DNA of 36,751 nt, from IMG/VR virus record IMGVR_UViG_3300045988_077255; one strand, written 5' to 3'. Positions 1-36,751 of the stretch are shown here, one piece after another (the stretch's first letter is position 1; each line of letters opens with the position of its first letter). The position numbers were made by a program, and so were the translations under genes. The notes under the pieces were generated by a model. That model was not told the DNA's origin. It worked only from the letters and a program-made list of their open reading frames with translations, and made no database searches. Origin of the DNA: a virus.

Positions 1-24
1 ACTATGCAACACGAAATGCAACAC

Positions 25-54
25 AAAATAAAAAAAGTACCGTAAATACAGTAC
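25..54 (-). terminator. Rho-independent terminator of the target tRNA (copy within repeat 1)
   Basis: Minus strand reads GUACUGU-AUUU-ACGGUAC (7-bp stem, one G.U) followed by UUUUUUUAUUUU, directly 3' of the tRNA end. Confidence 0.6.
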
Positions 55-62
55 TTTTAAAG

Positions 63-85
63 CAGGGGATGAGGGATTCGAACCC
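63..85 (-). tRNA. tRNA 3' fragment (T-loop, T-stem 3' strand, acceptor 3' strand), duplicated copy
   Basis: Minus strand reads GGG-TTCGAAT-CCCTC-ATCCCCT-G. This gives a canonical T-loop, a 7-nt acceptor strand implying A1:U72, and discriminator G73. Confidence 0.55.
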
Positions 86-1758: not shown

Positions 1759-2199
1759 CTATGCTAATACCCAACAAAGATTAATATAATATTCTTTATT
1801 AGTCTCTGATAATTGTGAGTCATTCACAAGAGCTACTACTCCATCTGTATTAATTCCGATGTTTCCGTAGCGCAAATCATATCGAGGAGCAAGGAGGCGC
1901 ACATAGCGATTCGGGCGATAACCCGCTGGAATCGTTGCAAGTGTTGCACCTGCCGCTGTTGCGCTTGTTTTTAATCTTCCTAATGCAACCACAATATTGC
2001 CATGCTTTCTAAGTGTGATATCTCCTGTGCTTCCGCTTGCTAATGTTGCTTTTGCTGTCGTGCCGTTAAAAATCGCTTCCGCTGTTGTTGTAGAATTATC
2101 TGAGTTTGTATGTGCTACCTGTGCCGAATCTGTTTTGTGATGGTATTCATCCCATGTACTTCCATTAAAAATTTTAAAAATTGCTTTCTTAATTGCCAT
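1759..2199 (-). CDS. Hypothetical fibre-module protein
   Basis: 146 aa with RBS TAGGAGG. It is the last gene of the tail-fibre block. No motif was recognised. Confidence 0.5.
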   Translation of the reverse strand: MAIKKAIFKIFNGSTWDEYHHKTDSAQVAHTNSDNSTTTAEAIFNGTTAKATLASGSTGDITLRKHGNIVVALGRLKTSATAAGATLATIPAGYRPNRYVRLLAPRYDLRYGNIGINTDGVVALVNDSQLSETNKEYYINLCWVLA

Positions 2200-2213
2200 T
2201 CTTTTACCTCCTA

Positions 2214-2390
2214 CTATATATTAATCCAAACAGTTCCAGTTGCGACTCCGGTCGGAGCAGATGTTTGAGTATAAATTTTTGTTCCATCTGCACCTTTAGG
2301 ACCAGCCGGTCCCGTTGCTCCTTTTTGTCCAGTATCTCCTTTCGGTCCAGTCGCTCCAACTACTCTACCTAAATCAACTGTGCTTGCCAT
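2214..2390 (-). CDS. Small collagen-like protein (58 aa), not in the ORF track
   Basis: ATG at 2390 behind GGAGGTAAGAA. Reads MASTVDLGRVVG, then about 8 G-X-Y triplets, then TKIYTQTSAPTGVATGTVWINI, then TAG at 2214..2216. The N-terminus is paralogous to that of 2409..4004. Confidence 0.6.
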   Translation of the reverse strand: MASTVDLGRVVGATGPKGDTGQKGATGPAGPKGADGTKIYTQTSAPTGVATGTVWINI

Positions 2391-2408
2391 TTCTTACCTC
2401 CATTTTAC

Positions 2409-4004
2409 TTACGGATAAATTGCAATCAAATGTCCATTCGAATCAATCTGAAACGTCGGGCTATCACCTTTATCGCCTTTGTCGCCTTTTGCTCCGGTTG
2501 CACCGGTGGCACCTTTTGCACCTGTATCTCCCTTATCTCCTTTAGCTCCGGTTGCACCGGTGGCGCCTTTTGCTGCTATCTGTAACCAATAAGTCGTATT
2601 CGTTGGAATGATACTAGAAGAAGCAGTGTGGCTCTTGATACAGGCATAGGTATTGCCATTGTATGTAACGATATCAATATAAGATGTATCATTCACATAA
2701 GCAGTTCCGGATGCCCATGCATTTTTCAGTCTCATACTGACACCGGTCGAACCTTTTGCTCCGGTATCTCCCTTTGCTCCAGTTGCGCCAGTGTTTCCGG
2801 TTGCTCCTTTTGCTGCAATTTGAGTCCAGTATGTAGTATTTGTCGGAACGATGTTGGAAGAAGCAGTATGACCTTTTGCACAAGCATAAGTACTGCCGTT
2901 GTAAGTCACAATATCAATATACGTCCCATCATTGACATAAGCAGTTCCAGATGCCCATGCGCCTTTCAAACGCATACTCACACCTTTTGCACCTTGTGCC
3001 CCCTGCGGTCCCTGCGCTCCAATCGGTCCTTGCGCACCTGTCTCGCCTTTTGCACCTGTCGCTCCAGTAGCTCCTGTTGCCCCCTTGATATTGCCGGTCT
3101 TCGACCATGCACCAGAGGCTCTTTTATATACATCAAAATTCGATGTATTTAAGAAGAAATCTCCGTCTTTTCCCTGTGATGCAGATGGTGCAGCTGTTCC
3201 GGTCAACCATGTTGCCCCATCTGCTCCTTTTGCACCAGTCGCACCAGTTGCACCCTTGTCACCTTTTGCTCCTGTCGCACCGGTATCGCCTTTTGCTCCT
3301 TTCTCACCTTTTGGTCCTTGTAAGTCAACAACCATCTGAAAACCGGAGATATGTACTTTGTATCCTGCCGGAAGTCCTGCTTTTAACTTAATTCCTTTTC
3401 CATCTGAGTTTTCAGTAAATGTCGTTCCATCCTGTCGTACACCATCAACATATACTTCCAGAGCATTTCTATTCAACGGAAACTGATAATCTGTCCAAGA
3501 AAAAGAAGTTTGCCCCTCTGTAGAGGTAAAAATCTTCTCAAAGCGAATATAGCTTTCTGTACTTCCTGCCGGCCCCTGAACACCTCGTTCACCTTTTGGT
3601 CCCTGTGGTCCAGTCGCACCGGTATCACCTTTGTCACCTTTTACACCCTGAATACCCTGTGGTCCCTGAATACCTTGGTCTCCTTTATCGCCTTTCGGTC
3701 CTTGAATGCCTCGTGCACCAGATAAGTCAACGATATAAGTATAGGCACTTGAATTTTTACAATATAATTTACCGGTATCCACATCATCTACACTCCCGGT
3801 ATCAATCATGACAAAACTTCCTACGCTTACTCCATCTGTAGAATATCCAGCATTCATGGCTGATACACTTTTGTAAATTTTAGCGATTTTAAACGGCTCT
3901 CCCGGGTCACCTTTTAGCCCCTGCTTTCCTTGAGGTCCCTGTGGTCCCTGTGCTCCTTGCGGTCCCTGCGGACCGATTACTTTACCTAAATCAACTGTAC
4001 TCAT
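2409..4004 (-). CDS. Collagen-like tail fibre / receptor-binding protein with two tandem CBM5/12 (ChtBD3)-like modules
   Basis: 531 aa with several G-X-Y tracts. A duplicated ~70-aa unit reads AWASGTAYVND..YIDIVTYNG.TYAC.K.HTASS.I.PTNTTYW.QI, matching the chitin-binding type 3 pattern. Confidence 0.85.
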   Translation of the reverse strand: MSTVDLGKVIGPQGPQGAQGPQGPQGKQGLKGDPGEPFKIAKIYKSVSAMNAGYSTDGVSVGSFVMIDTGSVDDVDTGKLYCKNSSAYTYIVDLSGARGIQGPKGDKGDQGIQGPQGIQGVKGDKGDTGATGPQGPKGERGVQGPAGSTESYIRFEKIFTSTEGQTSFSWTDYQFPLNRNALEVYVDGVRQDGTTFTENSDGKGIKLKAGLPAGYKVHISGFQMVVDLQGPKGEKGAKGDTGATGAKGDKGATGATGAKGADGATWLTGTAAPSASQGKDGDFFLNTSNFDVYKRASGAWSKTGNIKGATGATGATGAKGETGAQGPIGAQGPQGAQGAKGVSMRLKGAWASGTAYVNDGTYIDIVTYNGSTYACAKGHTASSNIVPTNTTYWTQIAAKGATGNTGATGAKGDTGAKGSTGVSMRLKNAWASGTAYVNDTSYIDIVTYNGNTYACIKSHTASSSIIPTNTTYWLQIAAKGATGATGAKGDKGDTGAKGATGATGAKGDKGDKGDSPTFQIDSNGHLIAIYP

Positions 4005-4015
4005 TATTTACTCCT

Positions 4016-5194
4016 TTAATCTTCATAAATTGCAATCAAATGTCCATCGGTATTTATCATCATCTGAGGTGTTTTTCCATCTTCTCCTTTTATTCCCTGA
4101 ATCCCCTCTACCAACTGCATAGAAGTGGTGGAAATATCTGAGATTTTTTCTAAGATGGTTTTCTGTGTCGTTCCAAATGTCGGTGAAATAGAATATCCAT
4201 TCTCGTCAAAAGTCTCTGTCGTCTCAACAATTCTCTCATTCATGTTTACTGCATATTCACGGTCAACCGTTACAACGATATCTCCGATATCCCATTTAAT
4301 TTTATACTGGGAAGAATCCACTTCTGAGGAGTAAGTGTCATTACAAGCACATTCTGCCAGTTTTGACTTTCCTCTATCTGGAAGTGCTGTATCATCTTCT
4401 ATATCTCTTGCATCAACAAACAGCTCATACCGCTCTAATCCAGAATTTTCATTTCCAACATAACGAATACGGCGCTCTGCTCCCTCTCCCTGTCCTGCTA
4501 CAATCGCAGTATTTTTATATTCAGAAATATCTGAGATAAATTCCCGATTTGTGACATTATCATAATCTACATTAAAAATCATTGGTGGACGATTGCTTTG
4601 ATTCGCAGAACGGTCAACTCCCTCTAAAACTTCAAATAAAAGCTGTTGGTTTTCCGGAATTAGTGAAATACTCACACCAAGCCCCGATGCTTCGCATAGA
4701 GCGGTTACTGCCTCATCTAAATTGTCATACCTGGTCTGGTAATACACTCTGTCGCCACGTCCTGAGGATGCTTTCACCTTTAAAAATGGAATATTTCGCT
4801 TTGTATCTGTCGCATTTGTGGCATTCGCTTTTACTAGACTGCAGATAATATTTTCTGCAGTGTCATGAAAACTATGATATGCAAGCCCTTTCGGAGGGTA
4901 CGTTATACGCTGCGTTAACAAATGCAACAGTGTATATCCACTGATGGTTGCGGGTGTACTAGAATTATCATCGTCAGAACATTCAATTCTCTTGATAATT
5001 CCAGTTTTCTTCCTGTCATTATCCAGCATAATATAGTTCCCTATTTTCATCTGCTTCGTAATTCTATACACAAAAATTTGGAACGTCCCGTATTTTGTCC
5101 AGCGTGTAATAAATTCCAACCCCTCATAAGCATCCAGTTCACCGATAAATTTCAAGTTTTTATCAAAAAATCTTACGTTAATTCGTTTATCCAT
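4016..5194 (-). CDS. Tail/baseplate protein (Siphovirus ReqiPepy6 Gp37-like) with short C-terminal collagen stretch
   Basis: Track ORF is 4016..5251. ATG at 5194 (MDKRINVRFFDKNLKFIGELD) overlaps the upstream stop. The C-terminus reads GIQGIKGEDG...TDGHLIAIYED. Confidence 0.65.
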   Translation of the reverse strand: MDKRINVRFFDKNLKFIGELDAYEGLEFITRWTKYGTFQIFVYRITKQMKIGNYIMLDNDRKKTGIIKRIECSDDDNSSTPATISGYTLLHLLTQRITYPPKGLAYHSFHDTAENIICSLVKANATNATDTKRNIPFLKVKASSGRGDRVYYQTRYDNLDEAVTALCEASGLGVSISLIPENQQLLFEVLEGVDRSANQSNRPPMIFNVDYDNVTNREFISDISEYKNTAIVAGQGEGAERRIRYVGNENSGLERYELFVDARDIEDDTALPDRGKSKLAECACNDTYSSEVDSSQYKIKWDIGDIVVTVDREYAVNMNERIVETTETFDENGYSISPTFGTTQKTILEKISDISTTSMQLVEGIQGIKGEDGKTPQMMINTDGHLIAIYED

Positions 5195-5797: not shown

Positions 5798-6640
5798 TTA
5801 CACTCCTATATATCTGTTTTTGTATCGTACTTCCACGGACTGAGGGTCTAAACCGTTTTCAGACGTATATTCAAGCATGTTATCACCTACTTGCAAGGAG
5901 AAAAATACAGACTGCAGATCAATGTAATCAAATGCATCTGTGCTTACTCCACCTCTTATAATTTCAACTTTCTTCTGTCCAAAAGCAGTATTGATATACA
6001 AAATATCATCCGAAGTCAGTTCCCTCTTAATTCGGATAAATTCTCCTGTAGACAAATTCGTAATCTTAGGATTAACTGCCGGTCCGTGAAAATAAATTTC
6101 AATAGGTGCTTCTGTATGTCCGGAATTAAAGACGTTCTTTTTAGGTTCTCCCCTCTCTTTGAGCTTAAAAGGGAGCGTGAATTTCCACGCCCACCCTTTT
6201 ACCCATGTAGAAATTGCCTCTCCAGTCTGCACAATGTCCTTGAACATTGGATCCATACAGGAAAGTTCTATTTCAAATTCAAGAACATCATAAATATTCT
6301 GACTTGTAAAACGAAAACTTTCTACTTCGTATTCAATTTCTCTTTCCACACCAAGATGATTCACCGTTAAAATTCCGGAAGAAAACGGACTGAAAAAACG
6401 GATTAATTCCTGACGCTTATCGGATTTATCCTCGTTTCCGAGATAATCCGCTGAAATAGCAATCGGTCTTGAAAGAACTTTTTTTCGCTTTAACCGTTCT
6501 CCAATAAAGTTCGAATTTACGCTTTTTTCCAGTTCATAATCTGTTGCTTCAATTCCGGAATATTCTGTTACACCAAAATCTGGCTCATCTAGTACAAGCG
6601 TCTCTTCTCCTTTCGAAAAGCTAAACACTATCCTATTCAA
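5798..6640 (-). CDS. Distal tail protein (Sipho_tail family, Dit-like)
   Basis: 280 aa, immediately downstream of the TMP with a 4-nt overlap. This is the typical position and size. Confidence 0.7.
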   Translation of the reverse strand: MNRIVFSFSKGEETLVLDEPDFGVTEYSGIEATDYELEKSVNSNFIGERLKRKKVLSRPIAISADYLGNEDKSDKRQELIRFFSPFSSGILTVNHLGVEREIEYEVESFRFTSQNIYDVLEFEIELSCMDPMFKDIVQTGEAISTWVKGWAWKFTLPFKLKERGEPKKNVFNSGHTEAPIEIYFHGPAVNPKITNLSTGEFIRIKRELTSDDILYINTAFGQKKVEIIRGGVSTDAFDYIDLQSVFFSLQVGDNMLEYTSENGLDPQSVEVRYKNRYIGV

Positions 6641-9600
6641 GTTAATGCCAACCTCCTTGCTTCTTTTCTGAGAGCACGGCTCATCTCTACTGGAGACTGA
6701 ACTGGCTGATAGAAATTAATCTCCTGTTTCACTTCTGTATTTTGAGAAGCTGCATGTCCGTAAGCCTGTGGTGCTCTTTCGAGCATTTTGTTTGTCGTGA
6801 TTCTGGAAACTGTTTCACTTACTGCTCCTCTCATCATTCCAAGCAGAGACTTTACATCCACCTGCATGGCATCGGTTACCATTTCCGCAGCCTGTGTTAC
6901 AACAGAAGTATTATCTTCCATTCCTCCACTGATACCGTAATCAAACATCTTACCAATCCAGGCGCCCACTCGTGATGGAGAATGAATTTGTAAGTTTGCT
7001 TTTGCCGCATTAGCTGCCGCACTTGCTACAGATGCCGCTGCGCTTGCAACCCCATAACCGCCCGCACGAATACCATTCGCAAAGCCATTTGAGAAGTTTA
7101 CTCCAATCGAATAACTGCCACCGGAATTGTTTGCCAGAGCGTCTCTTGCTCCACTTCCAAGAGAAGCCGCTACCGATGAAGCACTACCTTTCTTTTCATT
7201 AATTCCGTCTACAAAGCTGGAACCCAGTTTGTTTCCTTGAGTTTTTGCAGAATTTGCGACATTTGCACCGCTTAATCCTTTTGTCGCTGCTGTTCCAAGT
7301 CCTCTTGCTGCCGATGAAGCACTATTTGTTCCATTCCGGATTCCAGCCGCAAACTGATTTGTCGCTGTTTTTGCCTGCTGAGTAAAATTACTCGGAATGT
7401 TCGTTCCTTTTAAGGAATTTTTTGCAGAGTTTCCAAGTGCTGATGCAGATGCTTTTGTACTTCCCTGCCCTGCAGATAACGTTCTTGCGAAGTTCTGCGT
7501 TGCCGATGTTGCTGCGGTTTGATAGTTTCCGGCAACAGACATGTTTCCAAGACCGGATTTTGCCGCATTTCCAAGTGCTGACGCTGCCGATGAAGCACTA
7601 CCAGCTCCACTGTTCAAGCTATTTACAAGCCCTGATACTGCACTTTGAGACTGGGAAGAAAATGTTCCTGGCATATTTCCGGCAACAATCCCGGTATTTG
7701 CTGCGTTTCCAAGAGCCGATGCTGACAACTGCATAGATTCTGCACTGCTCAACAAATATGTATTCGCTGCTGATGCGGCGGCAGATGCATTTGAGCCAAA
7801 CACTGCCGGCATGTCTGCCGCCGTAAATCCAGTTGCACCAGACTGAGCAACTGTTAATGCCGCCATATACAGTTCTTCCTGATGTGCAAGCACTTCCTCT
7901 ACTGTCATTCCGCACGCTTTTGCCGCCGCAAACACTGCTCCGGAATAATCTGTTTCCGTAAATCCTCGTGTAATTGCACTTGCACTGTTTCCTGCCGCTG
8001 TCCGAATAAAATCCTCACCAGTTTCAAGCTGATTGATTGTGGAATCAACTGCATCACTTGCTTTCTGAGCAGGAGTAGTCTGCGTATCAACTTCATCAAT
8101 GCCTTGAATCAACTGTTCGATTGCTTCTGTTCCGACATCACCAAGTGCACCACTATCTTTTAAGTAGGTAGCAAATGTCTTTATGATTTCTTCTGATGTC
8201 ATAGATGAAACATTCTGAAATTCTGGAACTTTATCTTTCATTCCTTCCATTGCTTCGCTCATGCCAGAAGCTAACGCTTCTTTTCCCTCTGGACCCAGTT
8301 TTTCAATATTATTAATTGCATTTGTAATTGCTTCCTGGAGAGTCTTTGGAATTTCTCCACCAGAGACTTTGATCTCCTCTGCTGCCATTCTGAAACCTTG
8401 CGACATTTTTGCATAATCAGTAGATTCAAGTGCTTTTTCTATTACATCCTGACTATACTTTACAGCTTTTGCTGCTTTATCTGATTCTGTTGGAATCTTT
8501 GCATAAGCATCCAATGCTTTTTGAATACTTTCTGGTGTTCCCTCTCCAAGCAAATCCATAACTTGGTCCAGGGAACTGGTTTGAACCTCTGCTTTTTTTG
8601 CTTCCTTTGTAGCCTCAGAAAGATTTTCTCTTGTATCTTCAAGATTTTCATTTGCCTCTTTAAATGCCTTTTTAGCATTTCCATCCCATGTTTTCGTATA
8701 CTCTTCTAACGCTTTTGCATACTCGTCTAATGCTTTATTATACTGGTTCTGGGCTTTTGTTAAATCTGCCTGTATTTCAGACTGTTTCTGCAAATTATCG
8801 GCATATTGGTTTGTTACAGCTTCCTGAACAGCTTTCTTTTTCAAGCTACGCACATATTCATCAATGGACTGTGTTACATCTCCAAGAGACTGCTTCACAC
8901 CCTCATTATTCTGAATAAATCCATCTGCGGTAATGGAATACTCTGTTCCCATTGCCTCATTTAGCTGATTCAAAATAGAGCCTGCAAGCTGTTCACAGCC
9001 TTGTTTCATCTTTCCGGTTTCATCAAAGGCTTCTGACAATTTACCTTTCAGACGTTCCAGAGGAGCCGCGGAACTTTCTGCTGAGTTATTTGTGCTTTCA
9101 ATCGAACTGGATAACTCGTCTAATTCATTTCGATTCTTCTCAATCGAAGCGGATAAGTTATCAATTTCTTTCTGGAATGCAACCTGTTCTTTGCTTGCCT
9201 CATTTGATTTAAGTGCAAGAAAGGCAATTCCACCTGCCAGTGCACCAATTCCGATTGCAATCATTGCCGCTGGATTTGCGCTCATCACCGCATTTAATGC
9301 AGCCATTACTCCACCAGCTTCGGAAGATACTCTGCTTAACTTCGTAATTACAGATACAACTGTTGTAACCGGTCCGCTGACTGTTTTAAAAGTCTTAAAA
9401 GCAGCTACAAGCGAAACAGTAACAGGTGCTATTTTATCCATATTGTCAGCAAGTTTAATGAATATTTTTCCAAGTCCGCTTACGTTTGGTTCTGCAATCT
9501 TTACAATACTTTTTAATCCAGCATCGAACGTCCGTTTTAAAGCGTCCATTCCTTTTTTGGCTGGATCCTGCATTTTCTTTGGCAAAAGTTTAATGAGTCC

Positions 9601-10263
9601 AGTGCTTAATACATTTACAATCTCTGTTGCTGACTTTTTAAGCTGACTCTTATTGTTTACAACTCCTTTTGCAAACGCTTTGATTAAAGATACCGATGCG
9701 TTGACCATCTTTGGAGCAGACTGTGCTACTTTAACGGATAAATCCGCAAGCACTGCACCAGCTTCCTCTACTGCCGCATCCAGTCCACCATTTTGCAAAG
9801 CATTTGATATCCTGCCGACTGCACCAATTCCCTCTTCTGCCGCTTCTTTCAAAGAATCTTCGATGTTCTCGTAGATTCCGATGCCTAATCCCTCAAGAGC
9901 AGAATTTAATGTTGTCATTTTTCCTTGTAAGTTGTCCTGCATCGTATCAGCCATCTGTCCGGCTGCTCCGTCTGCATCTTCAATATAACCTTTCAGCTGG
10001 TCGAAACGTTCTCCTGAGTTCGCCAGTAATGCATTGACGCTCTTCAAGTCGACCTTGTTGAAAATGGTGTTTAAAACCTGTGTTCTCTCGCCCTCATTCA
10101 TTGAGCCTAAGATTTTGTTCAAATCATTAAATGTATCATTTAGAGGACGCATCTTTCCCTCTGCGTCAAATACATTCAAACCAAGCTCTTCCATTTTCTT
10201 TTTCGCCGTATCCGTTGGTGCGGATAGGCTTAAGATAACATTTCTAAGGGCGGTTCCACCTTC
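6637..10263 (-). CDS. Tape measure protein, exon 2 (1209 codons)
   Basis: The track ORF 6637..10194 stays open upstream of its Met back to TAG 10264..10266, reading EGGTALRNVILSLSAPTDTAKKKMEELG. The protein is long, Ala/Ser/Gly-rich and helical. Confidence 0.85.
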   Translation of the reverse strand, partial: EGGTALRNVILSLSAPTDTAKKKMEELGLNVFDAEGKMRPLNDTFNDLNKILGSMNEGERTQVLNTIFNKVDLKSVNALLANSGERFDQLKGYIEDADGAAGQMADTMQDNLQGKMTTLNSALEGLGIGIYENIEDSLKEAAEEGIGAVGRISNALQNGGLDAAVEEAGAVLADLSVKVAQSAPKMVNASVSLIKAFAKGVVNNKSQLKKSATEIVNVLSTGLIKLLPKKMQDPAKKGMDALKRTFDAGLKSIVKIAEPNVSGLGKIFIKLADNMDKIAPVTVSLVAAFKTFKTVSGPVTTVVSVITKLSRVSSEAGGVMAALNAVMSANPAAMIAIGIGALAGGIAFLALKSNEASKEQVAFQKEIDNLSASIEKNRNELDELSSSIESTNNSAESSAAPLERLKGKLSEAFDETGKMKQGCEQLAGSILNQLNEAMGTEYSITADGFIQNNEGVKQSLGDVTQSIDEYVRSLKKKAVQEAVTNQYADNLQKQSEIQADLTKAQNQYNKALDEYAKALEEYTKTWDGNAKKAFKEANENLEDTRENLSEATKEAKKAEVQTSSLDQVMDLLGEGTPESIQKALDAYAKIPTESDKAAKAVKYSQDVIEKALESTDYAKMSQGFRMAAEEIKVSGGEIPKTLQEAITNAINNIEKLGPEGKEALASGMSEAMEGMKDKVPEFQNVSSMTSEEIIKTFATYLKDSGALGDVGTEAIEQLIQGIDEVDTQTTPAQKASDAVDSTINQLETGEDFIRTAAGNSASAITRGFTETDYSGAVFAAAKACGMTVEEVLAHQEELYMAALTVAQSGATGFTAADMPAVFGSNASAAASAANTYLLSSAESMQLSASALGNAANTGIVAGNMPGTFSSQSQSAVSGLVNSLNSGAGSASSAASALGNAAKSGLGNMSVAGNYQTAATSATQNFARTLSAGQGSTKASASALGNSAKNSLKGTNIPSNFTQQAKTATNQFAAGIRNGTNSASSAARGLGTAATKGLSGANVANSAKTQGNKLGSSFVDGINEKKGSASSVAASLGSGARDALANNSGGSYSIGVNFSNGFANGIRAGGYGVASAAASVASAAANAAKANLQIHSPSRVGAWIGKMFDYGISGGMEDNTSVVTQAAEMVTDAMQVDVKSLLGMMRGAVSETVSRITTNKMLERAPQAYGHAASQNTEVKQEINFYQPVQSPVEMSRALRKEARRLALT

Positions 10264-10608
10264 CTATTCTTCATTGTCTAGGCTCTTTATCCTAGAACTA
10301 AGATTTCTCTTAGAGTTGGACTATATCTTCATCTTCAACTTTACTTGCTAAGATGTTGGGCACTCGTGGATAATTAGGCATACAAAAAGCACTCTTTTAA
10401 TGAGTGCTTCTGGTTAGCTTCTTATCTAGTCTCTACGCTTTCTAGTGGTTTCCCTCCTAGCTTAGCTCGGTATTGCCTTGTCTATTCTTATTACAATTTT
10501 ATCATAATTAGGTATAATTGCAATAAACGGCGATTAAATAAATTTAGGTTTCACCGAATTCACCCAATGTTTTTTCAAAGATATTTCTATCTAAGCGACC
10601 AAAAGTTT
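10264..10608 (-). ncRNA. Group I self-splicing intron (ORF-less, 345 nt) in the tape measure gene
   Basis: R-like GTAGAGACTAGA (10425..10436) and exact S consensus AAGATATAGTCC (10318..10329) form P7 GACUA/UAGUC. The internal guide ACUUUUGGUCGCUU pairs with both exon ends. The 5' exon ends in U and the intron ends in G. Confidence 0.8.
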
Positions 10609-11265
10609 AGCCCCTTTTACACCATTGTCAGCGAAGATTCCCAACACGGTATTGGCTTCTGTCACTCCTCCAGCAAGTGATTTTGCAGTACCACCCACTG
10701 TTAAAAGTGCTTCGCCTAACTGCTGGACGCTTGTATTACTCTTTTGAGACGTCTTCGCCATTTTGTCAACAAAGCTTTCGACCGTTCCAGCTTTATCACC
10801 AAGGGCTGACATACTGTCTGTTACCATATCAGATGCAGTCGCAAGGTCCATGTTGCCTGCTGCTGCTAAATTAAGCACCGTTGGCAAAGTTTGCACTGAT
10901 TTGTTTGTATCGTATCCGGCAAGAGCCATGTAATTTAATGCCTCTGCCGCCTGTGTAGCAGAGAACTTTGTTGTCGCTCCGGCATTTTTTGCAGCTTCCT
11001 GCAACTTAGAAAACTCTGCACTTCCATTGTGGATTTCTTCCGCAGACATTCCCATCGTTGCAGCCACTTGGCTCATTGCTGCTTCAAAGCTGGAGCCTAC
11101 TTTTATTGCATATCCACCCATGCCAGACAGGGCGGCAGATGTTGCAGTAATCGTTTTTGTCGCTGTCGCAAGCCCTTTTGATGCCAACGAAGAGATTTTT
11201 CCAAGTCCGTTTTCGATTCCCTTGGTATCCAGACCGGTTTCTATTACAATTTTACCGTCTGCCAT
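10609..11265 (-). CDS. Tape measure protein, exon 1 (219 codons)
   Basis: Track ORF 10591..11265 shows the TP901-type TMP N-terminal core (SFEAAMSQVAATMG, AEALNYMALAGY, DMVTDSMSALG, GIFADNGVKGA). The last 5 codons (KLLVA-stop) are intronic read-through. Confidence 0.85.
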
Positions 11266-11276
11266 CTTCTCACCTC

Positions 11277-11879
11277 CTAAAGATAAGGTGAGGGGTCTCT
11301 GCCCTCTTTCAAGGCTTTGATTAACTCTTCATTTTCCTCTACCTGTTGGATTTTATAATATCTCTGCATTGCCTTATAAAAAGCAACCTGCTCCTTTGAC
11401 AGACTCTTATTTGTCGTATCAATAATCCGATACTGCATAATCCGATGCAATGACACGGTTTCCGGAATATCATCCAGCATCGCAATAAATTCCCACCAGT
11501 GCAAATATTGAATGGTATGTAAATCAATGCCATACACATCGTTTCTGCGGAAAGCAGAGTAAATTAGCCAGGCATCTTCCTTGAAATTCAGTGCTTCATT
11601 ACTGTTAATTCCAAGTATTTTCTTTGATGGCTTACCTTTTTTCTCTTTCTTTCCACACTTTACAAACCAAGTTGCCTGTTTTACAGCCTCTGCAATATCA
11701 TTTCGAGGTGGTGGTATTTTATACAAAATCTGCAAGCATCTTTCTATGTCTGCTAACGTTTCATCCGCATCTTCTACCACTTCCATATAGCGTAAAACAG
11801 TACGAAAGTCTGTATTGATTGGATATTTTTCACCATTTACTTCTAAATTTTCTGGCGGTTTTTCTGTCAAAAAACTCAT
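11277..11879 (-). CDS. Tail assembly protein (Phage_Gp15-like)
   Basis: 200 aa lying between the chaperone and the TMP. The N-terminus YPINTDFRTVLRY is as in A118 gp15-type proteins. Confidence 0.6.
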   Translation of the reverse strand: MSFLTEKPPENLEVNGEKYPINTDFRTVLRYMEVVEDADETLADIERCLQILYKIPPPRNDIAEAVKQATWFVKCGKKEKKGKPSKKILGINSNEALNFKEDAWLIYSAFRRNDVYGIDLHTIQYLHWWEFIAMLDDIPETVSLHRIMQYRIIDTTNKSLSKEQVAFYKAMQRYYKIQQVEENEELIKALKEGRDPSPYL

Positions 11880-11882
11880 ATT

Positions 11883-12209
11883 TTATTCCGAATACAGTGC
11901 TAACAGATGATTCGTTTTCTCATTCATCACCTGCTCCTGTTTTCCTTTTTCTTCGCAAAGTGCAGTGTAAGCATCAATACATTTTAATAAATCATTTTCA
12001 TATCCGCACACAGCTGTTCCAACACCTTCTCCGAAAATATAGTCAAATGCCGCTTTAATAGCTTCGCACTGGATATTAATCTGTTCTGGTAAACTCTTTC
12101 CTTGTGCTCTTTCTGCTTCGTTTGCAACACTTTCATAACTGTCTATTAGTTTCTGTGCCTGATTTGCTTCAAACACATTCAGATTCAATGTAAGCCCATT
12201 AATCTCCAT
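11883..12209 (-). CDS. Tail assembly chaperone
   Basis: 108 aa, acidic, positioned between the major tail and Gp15-like genes. Confidence 0.55.
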   Translation of the reverse strand: MEINGLTLNLNVFEANQAQKLIDSYESVANEAERAQGKSLPEQINIQCEAIKAAFDYIFGEGVGTAVCGYENDLLKCIDAYTALCEEKGKQEQVMNEKTNHLLALYSE

Positions 12210-12293
12210 TTACCTTTTCCTCCTGTTTTAATTCGACAGTATTCTTTACTGCCTCTCTTTTTACTGCCTTTGTCAGCTTAGAAGAGAGGGATT

Positions 12294-12776
12294 TTACTCC
12301 CCCGCATCTTCTTTAAAGGTTTTCTTCTCAGGGTCGAAATATCCAAACACCCAGTCACCTTTACCAAGTAAGTTTCCAGAGCCTGTAATTTCTCCATCAT
12401 TGTCTGTAAATTCAGCTACTTCAATCGCTACACTTCTTTTTCTTGCTGGATATCCATTTGCAGTTTTTGCCCCTGCCAGGTCTACACGGATATATTCCGC
12501 TTCTGCATCCGGTCCTGTCTTTTCTTTTCTACCAATGTCTACAATAAATTTCACTGCTTCTTCTGTCTCAATCATGTCCATTTCGAATGGAGCAGACCAG
12601 TCATAAGAGCCGATAGACTTTGTTGTAGATTTATTGTTTACATACCGTTTTGAAGTAGTCTGTGCGGATGGGCTATCATCAACCTTTGTAAATCCGGTCC
12701 CCATGAGCACGTACTGGTCTGTTCCTGCTCCTACATTTAAGTAATCCGCTTCCTGATATCTCTGTTTTACTGCCAT
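12294..12776 (-). CDS. Major tail protein
   Basis: 160 aa, in the position upstream of the chaperones, followed by a hairpin-containing gap. Confidence 0.7.
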   Translation of the reverse strand: MAVKQRYQEADYLNVGAGTDQYVLMGTGFTKVDDSPSAQTTSKRYVNNKSTTKSIGSYDWSAPFEMDMIETEEAVKFIVDIGRKEKTGPDAEAEYIRVDLAGAKTANGYPARKRSVAIEVAEFTDNDGEITGSGNLLGKGDWVFGYFDPEKKTFKEDAGE

Positions 12777-22241: not shown

Positions 22242-22338
22242 ATATGGATAAAATGTAAAGAAAAGAGAAACATGTAAGTTTAGCACTTACCAGCTCTTGT
22301 CCATTACCCGAACAAGTGGGCACACCGTCACGTGTGAG

Positions 22339-22412
22339 CAACAGCGGAAGGAATCGAACCCCCGACCTCTTGCAAGGCATTTGCAAGCGCTCTACCACTG
22401 AGCTACGCTTTG
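22339..22412 (-). tRNA. Aberrant tRNA-like gene (Ala-tRNA-like body, non-canonical anticodon arm)
   Basis: Arms read CAAAGCG-TA-GCTC-AGTGGTA-GAGC-G-CTTGC-AAATGCCTT-GCAAG-AGGTC-GGGGG-TTCGATT-CCTTC-CGCTGTT-G. The D and T arms are canonical. The anticodon loop is 9 nt (or a 7-bp stem with a 5-nt loop). The acceptor stem pairs at only 5 of 7 positions. Confidence 0.5.
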
Positions 22413-36621: not shown

Positions 36622-36690
36622 ATCTCTTCATGAGAGGAAAAACACCCATTTTTAGCTATTTTAAAAACTATGCAACACGAAATGCAACAC

Positions 36691-36720
36691 AAAATAAAAA
36701 AAGTACCGTAAATACAGTAC
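36691..36720 (-). terminator. Rho-independent terminator of the target tRNA (copy within repeat 2)
   Basis: Same hairpin plus U-run as 25..54. Confidence 0.6.
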
Positions 36721-36728
36721 TTTTAAAG

Positions 36729-36751
36729 CAGGGGATGAGGGATTCGAACCC
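36729..36751 (-). tRNA. 3' end of a minus-strand tRNA gene continuing beyond the window (Trp-like: A1:U72, G73)
   Basis: GGG-TTCGAAT-CCCTC-ATCCCCT-G, truncated by the window edge. Confidence 0.55.

Follow-up and report, generated by a model that had tools for sequence, protein, structure and literature searches.

The stretch of DNA considered here (hereafter the window) is the IMG/VR virus record IMGVR_UViG_3300045988_077255, 36,751 nucleotides (nt) in length, and our subject is an interruption in its tape measure protein (TMP) gene, which lies on the minus strand. Two open reading frames (ORFs), 10591..11265(-) and 6637..10194(-), respectively cover the N-terminal part and the remainder of this protein. 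The first reads ...GIFADNGVKGA and then, within the interruption, KLLVA before a stop codon, and the frame of the second stays open upstream of its first methionine as far as a UAG at 10264-10266. A preliminary description of this DNA, which listed both ORFs correctly, had assigned the 345 nt in between to an endonuclease-free group I intron splitting a TP901-type TMP. A covariance-model match, intron-less homologues, profile matches restored upon joining and covariation in the predicted structure all bear this assignment out. We regard it as highly probable that 10264..10608(-) is a genuine group I intron, apparently of IA type, whose P1-P9.1 ribozyme would splice the transcript to encode a TMP of 1427 amino acids (aa), and that the genome carrying it is that of a siphovirus of a gut member of Bacillota (Clostridia-like).

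The Rfam search proposed in that description recovered the group I intron family RF00028 at 10297..10618(-) with 71.5 bits (E-value 2.1e-16; positions 1-253 of the 253 in the model), above the gathering score of 50 bits; the sole other Rfam match in the window is to a tRNA. Stop codons occur in all six frames of the 345 nt, and reading these frames revealed no homing endonuclease ORF inside the intron. The upstream exon ends in U and the intron in G (...AAUAG), as had been noted. The join of 10609 to 10263 is in frame as claimed, and its product is 1427 aa followed by a stop, the previously given length of 1428 having counted the stop. At the junction, ...NGVKGA|EGGTALRN..., the spliced product reads ...ADNGVKGAEGGTALRNVIL..., leaving the motif ...ADNGVKGAEGGTALRN... 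intact. The suggested alignment with intron-less TMP homologues runs continuously across GA|EGG and shows the boundary to be exact: all five (phiCP26F, phiCP39-O, contig MT837006, Coprococcus phage NatCom_24345 and Terrisporobacter phage TPDSL_ph1) read ...ADNGIKGAEGGT.LRNIIL..., i.e. NGIKGAEGGT.LRN, without a break, and the unoccupied site of phiCP26F is ...AAAGGTGCG|GAAGGAGGA... at the nucleotide level. Since the nucleotides flanking the two splice sites differ, the boundary cannot be shifted without altering the protein.

Profile searches are likewise continuous across the junction. The spliced TMP matches PF10145 over positions 1-200 of 201 as one unbroken match, and TIGR01760 over positions 2-325 of 349 with 221.6 bits; the separate ORFs match the latter profile over 2-173 (110.8 bits) and 196-325 (65.6 bits) respectively. 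The TP901-type core motif is thus restored once the two parts are joined, as had been anticipated, and the full core-profile match, along with the position of the gene directly upstream of Dit, places the window TMP in the TP901 family. In an alignment of 13 sequences the junction falls in a strongly conserved block (12-residue windows of 0.71-0.74 against a mean of 0.56), which holds the densest group of invariant residues (G215, G218, G222 and L225). Its description as the most conserved motif of the protein goes too far, as two other blocks score slightly higher (0.76-0.79). Exon 1 opens with an ATG at 11265, ahead of which stands a strong Shine-Dalgarno sequence, AGGAGGTGA, and none was found before the first in-frame methionine of the exon-2 ORF (10194), which lies 23 codons inside the conserved domain. 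The coordinates of the exons, the splice-site landmarks and the predicted helices are collected in Table 1. A 105-aa ORF with a TTG start on the opposite strand (10034-10351(+)), antisense to exon 2 and the last 88 nt of the intron, is probably spurious.

Table 1. The interrupted TMP gene of the window and the predicted structural elements of its intron (strand sequences given as RNA)
Feature	Position	Strand	Remarks
Group I intron, 345 nt, without ORF, subgroup IA-like	10264..10608	-	RF00028 match; boundaries fixed by homologues; covariation
TMP exon 1, 219 codons (657 nt)	10609..11265	-	ATG at 11265; last codon GCU
TMP exon 2, 1208 codons and stop (3627 nt)	6637..10263	-	starts GAA GGU (E220)
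UAG stop in exon-1 frame, five codons into intron	10591..10593	-	invariant in all family members
Internal guide sequence	10593..10606	-	forms P1 and P10; pairs invariant across family
P2 hairpin AGAUA-GAAA-UAUCU	10579..10592	-	
P3 5' strand UUGGGUG	10561..10567	-	partner 10356-10362; two pairs changed on both sides; four types of pair at one position
P4 5' strand (UCGGUG), J4/5 and P5 5' strand (CCU)	10546..10557	-	
L5 / P5 extension, 67 nt	10479..10545	-	site of endonuclease gene in relatives
P5 3' and P4 3' strands (AGGCAAUACCGA)	10467..10478	-	
P6/P6a/P6b hairpin, GAAA loop	10437..10466	-	four pairs changed on both sides
P7 5' strand GACUA	10427..10431	-	within R-like element
P7.1-like peripheral extension, P7 to P3'	10369..10426	-	closing stem GAUAA/UUAUC covaries
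P3 3' strand UGCCCAA	10356..10362	-	covariation
P8 hairpin	10330..10355	-	three pairs changed on both sides
P7 3' strand UAGUC	10319..10323	-	within S element
P9 hairpin CUAAGA-GAAA-UCUUAG	10298..10313	-	four pairs changed on both sides
P9.1 hairpin CUAGG-AUAAAGAG-CCUAG	10278..10295	-	three pairs changed on both sides
Terminal G (omega G), 3' splice site	10264..10264	-	all family members end in G

A single contiguous guide had been proposed to pair with both exons, and the pairing was found as claimed. Intron nt 9-16 (GGUCGCUU) pair with the end of exon 1 (AAGGGGCU) at seven of the eight positions of P1, with a U.G at the splice site and a single G-G mismatch, and in P10 all six positions pair intron nt 3-8 (ACUUUU) to GAAGGU, with which exon 2 begins; across the family of related introns described below, 97.6% of the P10 cells are paired. 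As the pairs of P1 and P10 are invariant throughout this family, they gain support from the pairing and none from covariation. The R-like element is GTAGAGACTAGA (10425-10436) and the S element AAGATATAGTCC (10318-10329); the P7 predicted from them lies inside the two, in agreement with the covariance model. These elements, the guide and the three hairpins singled out in the preliminary description stand exactly where it had placed them. P7 and the 3' strand of P3 are separated by an extension of 58 nt, whose closing stem GAUA/UAUC becomes UCGU/ACGA among relatives and which contains a hairpin (10388-10408) specific to the lineage of the window. From this extension the intron appears to be IA-like, of subgroup IA1 or IA2; the narrower label IA1-like would follow only from indirect similarity through three previously described introns (of JCL1032, term-IVS1 and TMP-IVS3; see below).

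The structure was examined in an alignment (A1) of seven distinct cores with short exon flanks, from which L5 had been trimmed. We scored P1, P10, P2-P5, P6/6a/6b, P7 (as a pseudoknot), the P7.1-like stem, P8, P9 and P9.1, and used as controls the same helices with their partners slid by 1-3 columns, as well as 500 shuffles. Base pairing is retained in 94.5% of the cells as against 33-41% in the slid controls, 20 pairs show changes on both sides as against 1-5, and none of the 500 shuffles reached any of the observed pairing measures. Compensatory changes are seen in P3 (one position of which shows U-A, C-G and G-C), P6a/b, the closing stem of the P7.1-like extension, P8, P9 and P9.1. Among these cores P1, P10, P2, P4 and P7 show little or no variation, and the test is neutral on those helices. 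An unconstrained minimum free energy fold of the 345 nt also recovers P2-P6, P8, P9 and P9.1 (z = -3.3).

Searches with the guide sequence revealed the same intron at the identical TMP site in more than 20 public contigs and phages, with lengths ranging from 274 to 1162 nt. An 18-mer scan of genome contigs gave mostly chance matches, three of the 14 (L025, L026 and L029) being genuine as judged by their exon context. At every locus of this family the exon ends with ...AAAGGGGCU (..GGGGCU), the intron starts with AAACUUUUGGUCGCUUAG and ends with G, and exon 2 opens with GAAGG. The codons preceding the intron are GGG GCU in all intron-bearing alleles and GGU GCG or GGC GCA in the intron-less ones, a restriction to be expected if a U.G pair and pairing in P1 are required. 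Differences in length are confined to L5 and the extension that follows P7. The shortest members, of 274-280 nt, are those of L009, L016, L029, L033, L035 and L039; L025 (uncultured Clostridia MGBC162170) has 342 nt; the 345-nt form occurs with identical sequence in the window, L034, L037 and L038; the Clostridium perfringens phage CPQ4 (L003, locus 3034-3480) has 447 nt; phiCP13O and 17DYC (L001-L002, loci 3034-4121) and L015 have 1088 nt; and L010, L011, L014, L026, L032 and L041 have 1162 nt. In phiCP34O, for which the length was not read, the intron starts as in phiCP13O. The presence of the 345-nt allele in three independent metagenome contigs besides the window rules out an assembly artefact. 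Moreover, in relatives whose flanks are 91-97% identical to those of the window the ribozyme is 100% identical; an intron better conserved than its host gene and the surrounding phage DNA points to recent lateral spread.

Several sister copies match RF00028 by themselves (L029 with 80.3, L009 with 78.8 and L025 with 67.3 bits). A scan of the C. perfringens loci L001-L003 at the gathering threshold gave no match, and one at E<=0.01 also missed the phiCP13O-type copies including that of CPQ4, so that the membership of these introns is founded on our own alignment, the shared site and the shared 5' 70 nt. In L025, L5 holds GCAGATAATGGTATAAAAGGC, which closely resembles the final 21 nt of TMP exon 1 of L025 itself, but in the form found in intron-less alleles (..AAAGGC, not ..AAAGGGGCT); an event of illegitimate recombination or of homing may have left it there as a scar. 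Beyond the TMP site, the uncultured phages cr4_1 (NC_055893) and cr6_1 (NC_055894) from human feces, which their record names suggest to be crAss-like, have unannotated regions that match intron nt 9-67 (from the 3' strand of P1 as far as P4) at about 81%, and this suggests that they too harbor related group I introns.

Comparison of the alleles revealed a presence/absence polymorphism of endonuclease genes in L5. The intron of the window is 100% identical to that of L026 over nt 1-123 and 123-345, and the sole difference is a block of 817 nt that is absent from the window at 10486. In L026 this block and the downstream core encode a 278-aa HNH endonuclease (PF01844), and the HNH alleles differ from one another by 1-4 nt. 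The phiCP13O-type introns code in the same place for an unrelated 267-aa DUF2726-type nuclease with zinc-finger-like motifs, of which just the 3' quarter of the ORF is left in CPQ4. The HNH ORF (in L026, L010, L011, L014, L032 and L041) extends into the ribozyme core, running through P5', P4' and into P6 before terminating with ...NRQGNTELS-stop, and the DUF2726 ORF of phiCP13O crosses that core too, in another frame. The window and the HNH allele have in common a segment of about 50 nt in L5 that is missing from the minimal introns of 274-280 nt. This segment includes a sigma-70-like element, TTGCAA-16-(TG)TAAAAT (10496-10523), outside the 817-nt block; in the relatives the ribosome-binding site and start codon of the HNH gene follow directly after it. 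A promoter scan gave 6 sites in the region as against 2.5 +/- 1.6 expected, in DNA that is AT-rich and with a weak match to the consensus. Homing introns pass through a cycle of invasion, fixation, loss of the endonuclease and loss of the intron. With HNH-bearing relatives and a sister carrying the DUF2726 nuclease, the window copy represents the endonuclease-free stage of such a mobile intron.

The anatomy described above suggests the following course of events, in which the steps are those of the standard group I pathway. The late transcript would fold into the P1-P9.1 ribozyme, in which the guide, paired with the last 8 nt of exon 1, would fix the position of the 5' splice site at its U.G pair. 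This site would be attacked by an external guanosine, P10 and the terminal G of the intron would define the 3' splice site, and ligation of the exons would yield an mRNA for a single 1427-aa TMP. On unspliced RNA, ribosomes would be expected to halt at the UAG five codons into the intron, ahead of the ribozyme core. The family would home to this exact site in the TMP gene, with sister copies bearing the HNH or the DUF2726-type gene in L5. The endonuclease-free copy of the window would be inherited passively or be mobilised only by an endonuclease supplied by a co-infecting relative; if it lost the HNH gene, it could presumably still splice, yet not move on its own.

Several considerations weigh in favor of a functional intron and others against it. 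On the favorable side, the sister intron is present in an essential gene of phiCP13O, phiCP34O, CPQ4 and 17DYC, which were deposited as C. perfringens phages (for some of them the host strain is named), and splicing of homologous or analogous TMP introns in the phages JCL1032 and ICP1 (see below) lends further support. Against it, the case for the window copy and for the exact-site family has been built entirely on sequence and predicted structure; P1 and P10 are without covariation, and P1 has its mismatch; the covariation sample is small, its seven rows coming from related sequences; the phiCP13O-type sisters escape RF00028 even at the relaxed threshold; and the direction of the 817-nt event is unproven, the promoter-like element that bears on it being a weak match. 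One could suppose that the intron is a dead relic, which no longer splices and has left the phage defective with a broken TMP, particularly as decay is to be expected at the endonuclease-free stage of the life cycle. This appears very unlikely: the core pairings are all intact with a full-length covariance-model match, the ribozyme has not departed by a single nucleotide from that of the HNH-bearing alleles, the exons are open over 1427 codons with an intact domain, the allele is unchanged in four contigs with differing flanks, and the window, a contig of circular type, is complete and has its late operon in full.

We consider it more improbable still that the gene has undergone fission into two polypeptides that cooperate without RNA splicing, even though ORF callers and GenBank record two coding sequences (CDSs) in phiCP13O, phiCP34O, CPQ4 and 17DYC and such an arrangement was deemed possible by Oakley et al. 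The break lies inside a conserved motif rather than at a domain boundary, the second ORF is without a Shine-Dalgarno sequence and would lose 23 conserved residues if started at its first methionine, the sequence in between shows the covariation of a ribozyme and contains a guide able to pair with the ends of both exons, and the intron-less alleles are continuous. As for an intein, a group II intron, a programmed frameshift or readthrough, nothing beyond the interrupted frame itself speaks for any of them, and we assign this group of explanations a negligible likelihood. The stops in all six frames exclude an intein or readthrough and also tell against a frameshift, and RF00028 is the only Rfam family to match at the intron.

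The polymorphism in L5 can be read in two directions. It seems probable, by a fair measure, that the window copy lost the HNH gene through a clean deletion of 817 nt, because the segment of L5 that it shares with the HNH allele is absent from the minimal introns, is promoter-like and directly precedes the HNH ribosome-binding site. An ORF-less 345-nt form could instead be ancestral, with the HNH gene inserted later into the relatives, which we hold to be rather unlikely. A clean indel in an otherwise identical intron could arise by one event in either direction, the 817-nt block does not include the promoter-like element and as a lone mobile unit would be promoterless, and the endonuclease content of TMP introns is known to turn over at unchanged splice junctions (Barth et al., PMC10448857). 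This order of events nonetheless has to contend with the minimal members, which do not have the approximately 50-nt segment, with the plausibility of this segment as the 5' remnant of an endonuclease cassette that was otherwise deleted, and with CPQ4, which shows that partial deletions of endonuclease genes happen in this family. The ends of the indel are indecisive: by eye they show a 1 nt overlap and an imperfect similarity of TAATAAGA and TAAATAGA, and no direct repeats were found at them beyond these.

An endonuclease-free intron might also be kept for its usefulness to the phage rather than as a harmless leftover, an idea to which we attach very little weight. How efficiently splicing proceeds could determine when, or in what quantity, full-length TMP is made, the 224-aa N-terminal product of unspliced RNA (...GVKGAKLLVA) could act in tail assembly, or the promoter-like element of L5 might drive a transcript starting inside the intron. 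That the allele recurs unchanged in several phage backgrounds which have diverged would agree with such a role but is also expected from recent spread.

The gene-neighborhood of the interrupted TMP is a standard siphovirus late operon on the minus strand, running from terL through portal, major head, three small genes without a name, TMP and Dit to the minor tail and fibre genes. Dit (5798-6640) lies directly downstream of the TMP gene, and the major head, portal and terL genes lie upstream. The three genes immediately upstream of TMP (11277-11879, 11883-12209 and 12294-12776, all on the minus strand) have no matches other than to PHROGs of unknown function; it is at these positions (11277-12776) that one would expect the major tail protein and the tail assembly chaperones. 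On the upstream side the terminase genes are adjoined by a phage-encoded tRNA-Ala gene (anticodon TGC; 22338-22412(-)). The first 85 nt of the window (1-85) recur exactly as a direct repeat in its last 85 nt (36667-36751), marking it as a circularly assembled genome, which is probably complete at about 36.7 kb (36,666 bp). Read on the opposite strand, positions 60-85 (GGGGATGAGGGATTCGAACCC) resemble a tRNA 3' half and might represent the core of an attachment site. A megablast search with 25 kb of the window against GenBank phages recovered no shared DNA other than 107 nt across the 5' splice site. Its close relatives were found among contigs from IMG/VR and metagenomes and in a prophage region that belongs to the gut isolate Firmicutes bacterium OM04-13BH; the aligned segments of all these are mostly 91-97% and in some cases 98-100% identical to the window.

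The chief value of these observations is for annotation, in that an essential TMP gene will be reported by gene callers as two fragments or as a pseudogene. The preliminary description had foreseen either outcome, and the first has already come about with the sister introns: the GenBank records of phiCP13O, phiCP34O, CPQ4 and 17DYC list two TMP CDSs and leave the intron unannotated. Oakley et al. (2011), who described phiCP13O and phiCP34O, gave no explanation for the split TMP and nowhere mentioned an intron. The intron family offers an explanation for it and, as far as could be found, had not been recognised at this exact site before. At a single target site it also brings together, as a compact natural series, stages in the life cycle of a homing intron, from minimal introns of 274-280 nt through invasions by HNH and DUF2726-type genes to an endonuclease gene deleted in part and a derivative cleanly freed of its endonuclease gene. 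For tail-length determination as such the window intron raises no new question, being a further example of a known phenomenon. The claim that introns had not been described in tail-length-determining genes is contradicted by reports on JCL1032 (2004), Bacillus cereus-group prophages (2008) and ICP1 (2023), which together with the present family add weight to the view of conserved TMP motifs as a recurrent target of homing.

The closest of these precedents is the Lactobacillus delbrueckii phage JCL1032, which is cited as having two self-splicing introns, one of them in its TMP gene (ORF17; Riipinen and Alatossava 2004, as cited in PMC6669764 and PMC2504315), and whose TMP CDS is annotated in GenBank as a join. 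As in the window, the TMP is of the PF10145/TP901 type and is interrupted in the same conserved motif by an ORF-less intron (322 nt in our own reconstruction). The cores are homologous, with 72% identity over nt 135-331 of the window intron and an RF00028 score of 59.4 bits for the JCL1032 copy. The JCL1032 intron differs in being inserted 10 nt upstream (..ANRGM|DGTRAGT.. as against ..NGVKGA|EGGT..), in its guide, where GUCCC pairs with GGGAU, and in its host phage, which is unrelated to that of the window. Its splicing, going by the papers that cite the original report, was shown by experiment, whereas that of the window intron is predicted.

Prophages of the B. cereus group contain IA1/IA2 introns at three TMP sites, TMP-IVS1, TMP-IVS2 and TMP-IVS3a/b (Tourasse and Kolsto 2008, PMC2504315). 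According to the same study most of these are without an endonuclease gene, homologous introns bear unrelated endonucleases (GIY-YIG versus HNH), related introns have adapted their P1 to neighboring sites, and term-IVS1, a relative of the TMP introns, matches the TMP intron of JCL1032. The hosts and phages in that system differ from those of the window. In the Vibrio cholerae phage ICP1, RNA-seq and reverse-transcription PCR revealed three introns in the gene for the TMP, which was termed a 'frequently interrupted gene'; their HNH content varies among isolates, some introns being empty (Barth et al. 2023, PMC10448857). In agreement with that report, our scan of ICP1_2006_B (L050) recovered three RF00028 matches in 2153-3906 (77.9, 28.9 and 38.9 bits) between two 'hypothetical' CDSs that are fragments of a PF20155-type TMP, with an annotated HNH gene within the stretch. 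The L050 record itself annotates neither the TMP nor the introns. A 47-nt stretch of ICP1 (J8/7, P7 3' and P9) is 85% identical to the window intron, and the two systems differ in that ICP1 is a myovirus of a Gram-negative host with a TMP of the PF20155 family and three introns in the gene.

Closer to the window are the introns of phiCP13O, phiCP34O, 17DYC and CPQ4, which share with it the insertion site and the first ~70 nt (88-89% identity in P1-P2), and which have the same core with compensatory changes. These sisters differ in length and content, having 1088 nt with the DUF2726-type nuclease in L5, or 447 nt with an ORF remnant in the case of CPQ4. The classical phage introns of subgroup IA, namely those of T4 td and nrdB, the SPO1 DNA polymerase gene and Twort, have an extension between P7 and P3'; they interrupt conserved motifs of essential genes, have an early in-frame stop and carry endonuclease ORFs in peripheral loops. 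The window intron shares their core architecture and differs in its host gene; unlike them, its endonuclease-free state is 100% identical to the endonuclease-bearing state.

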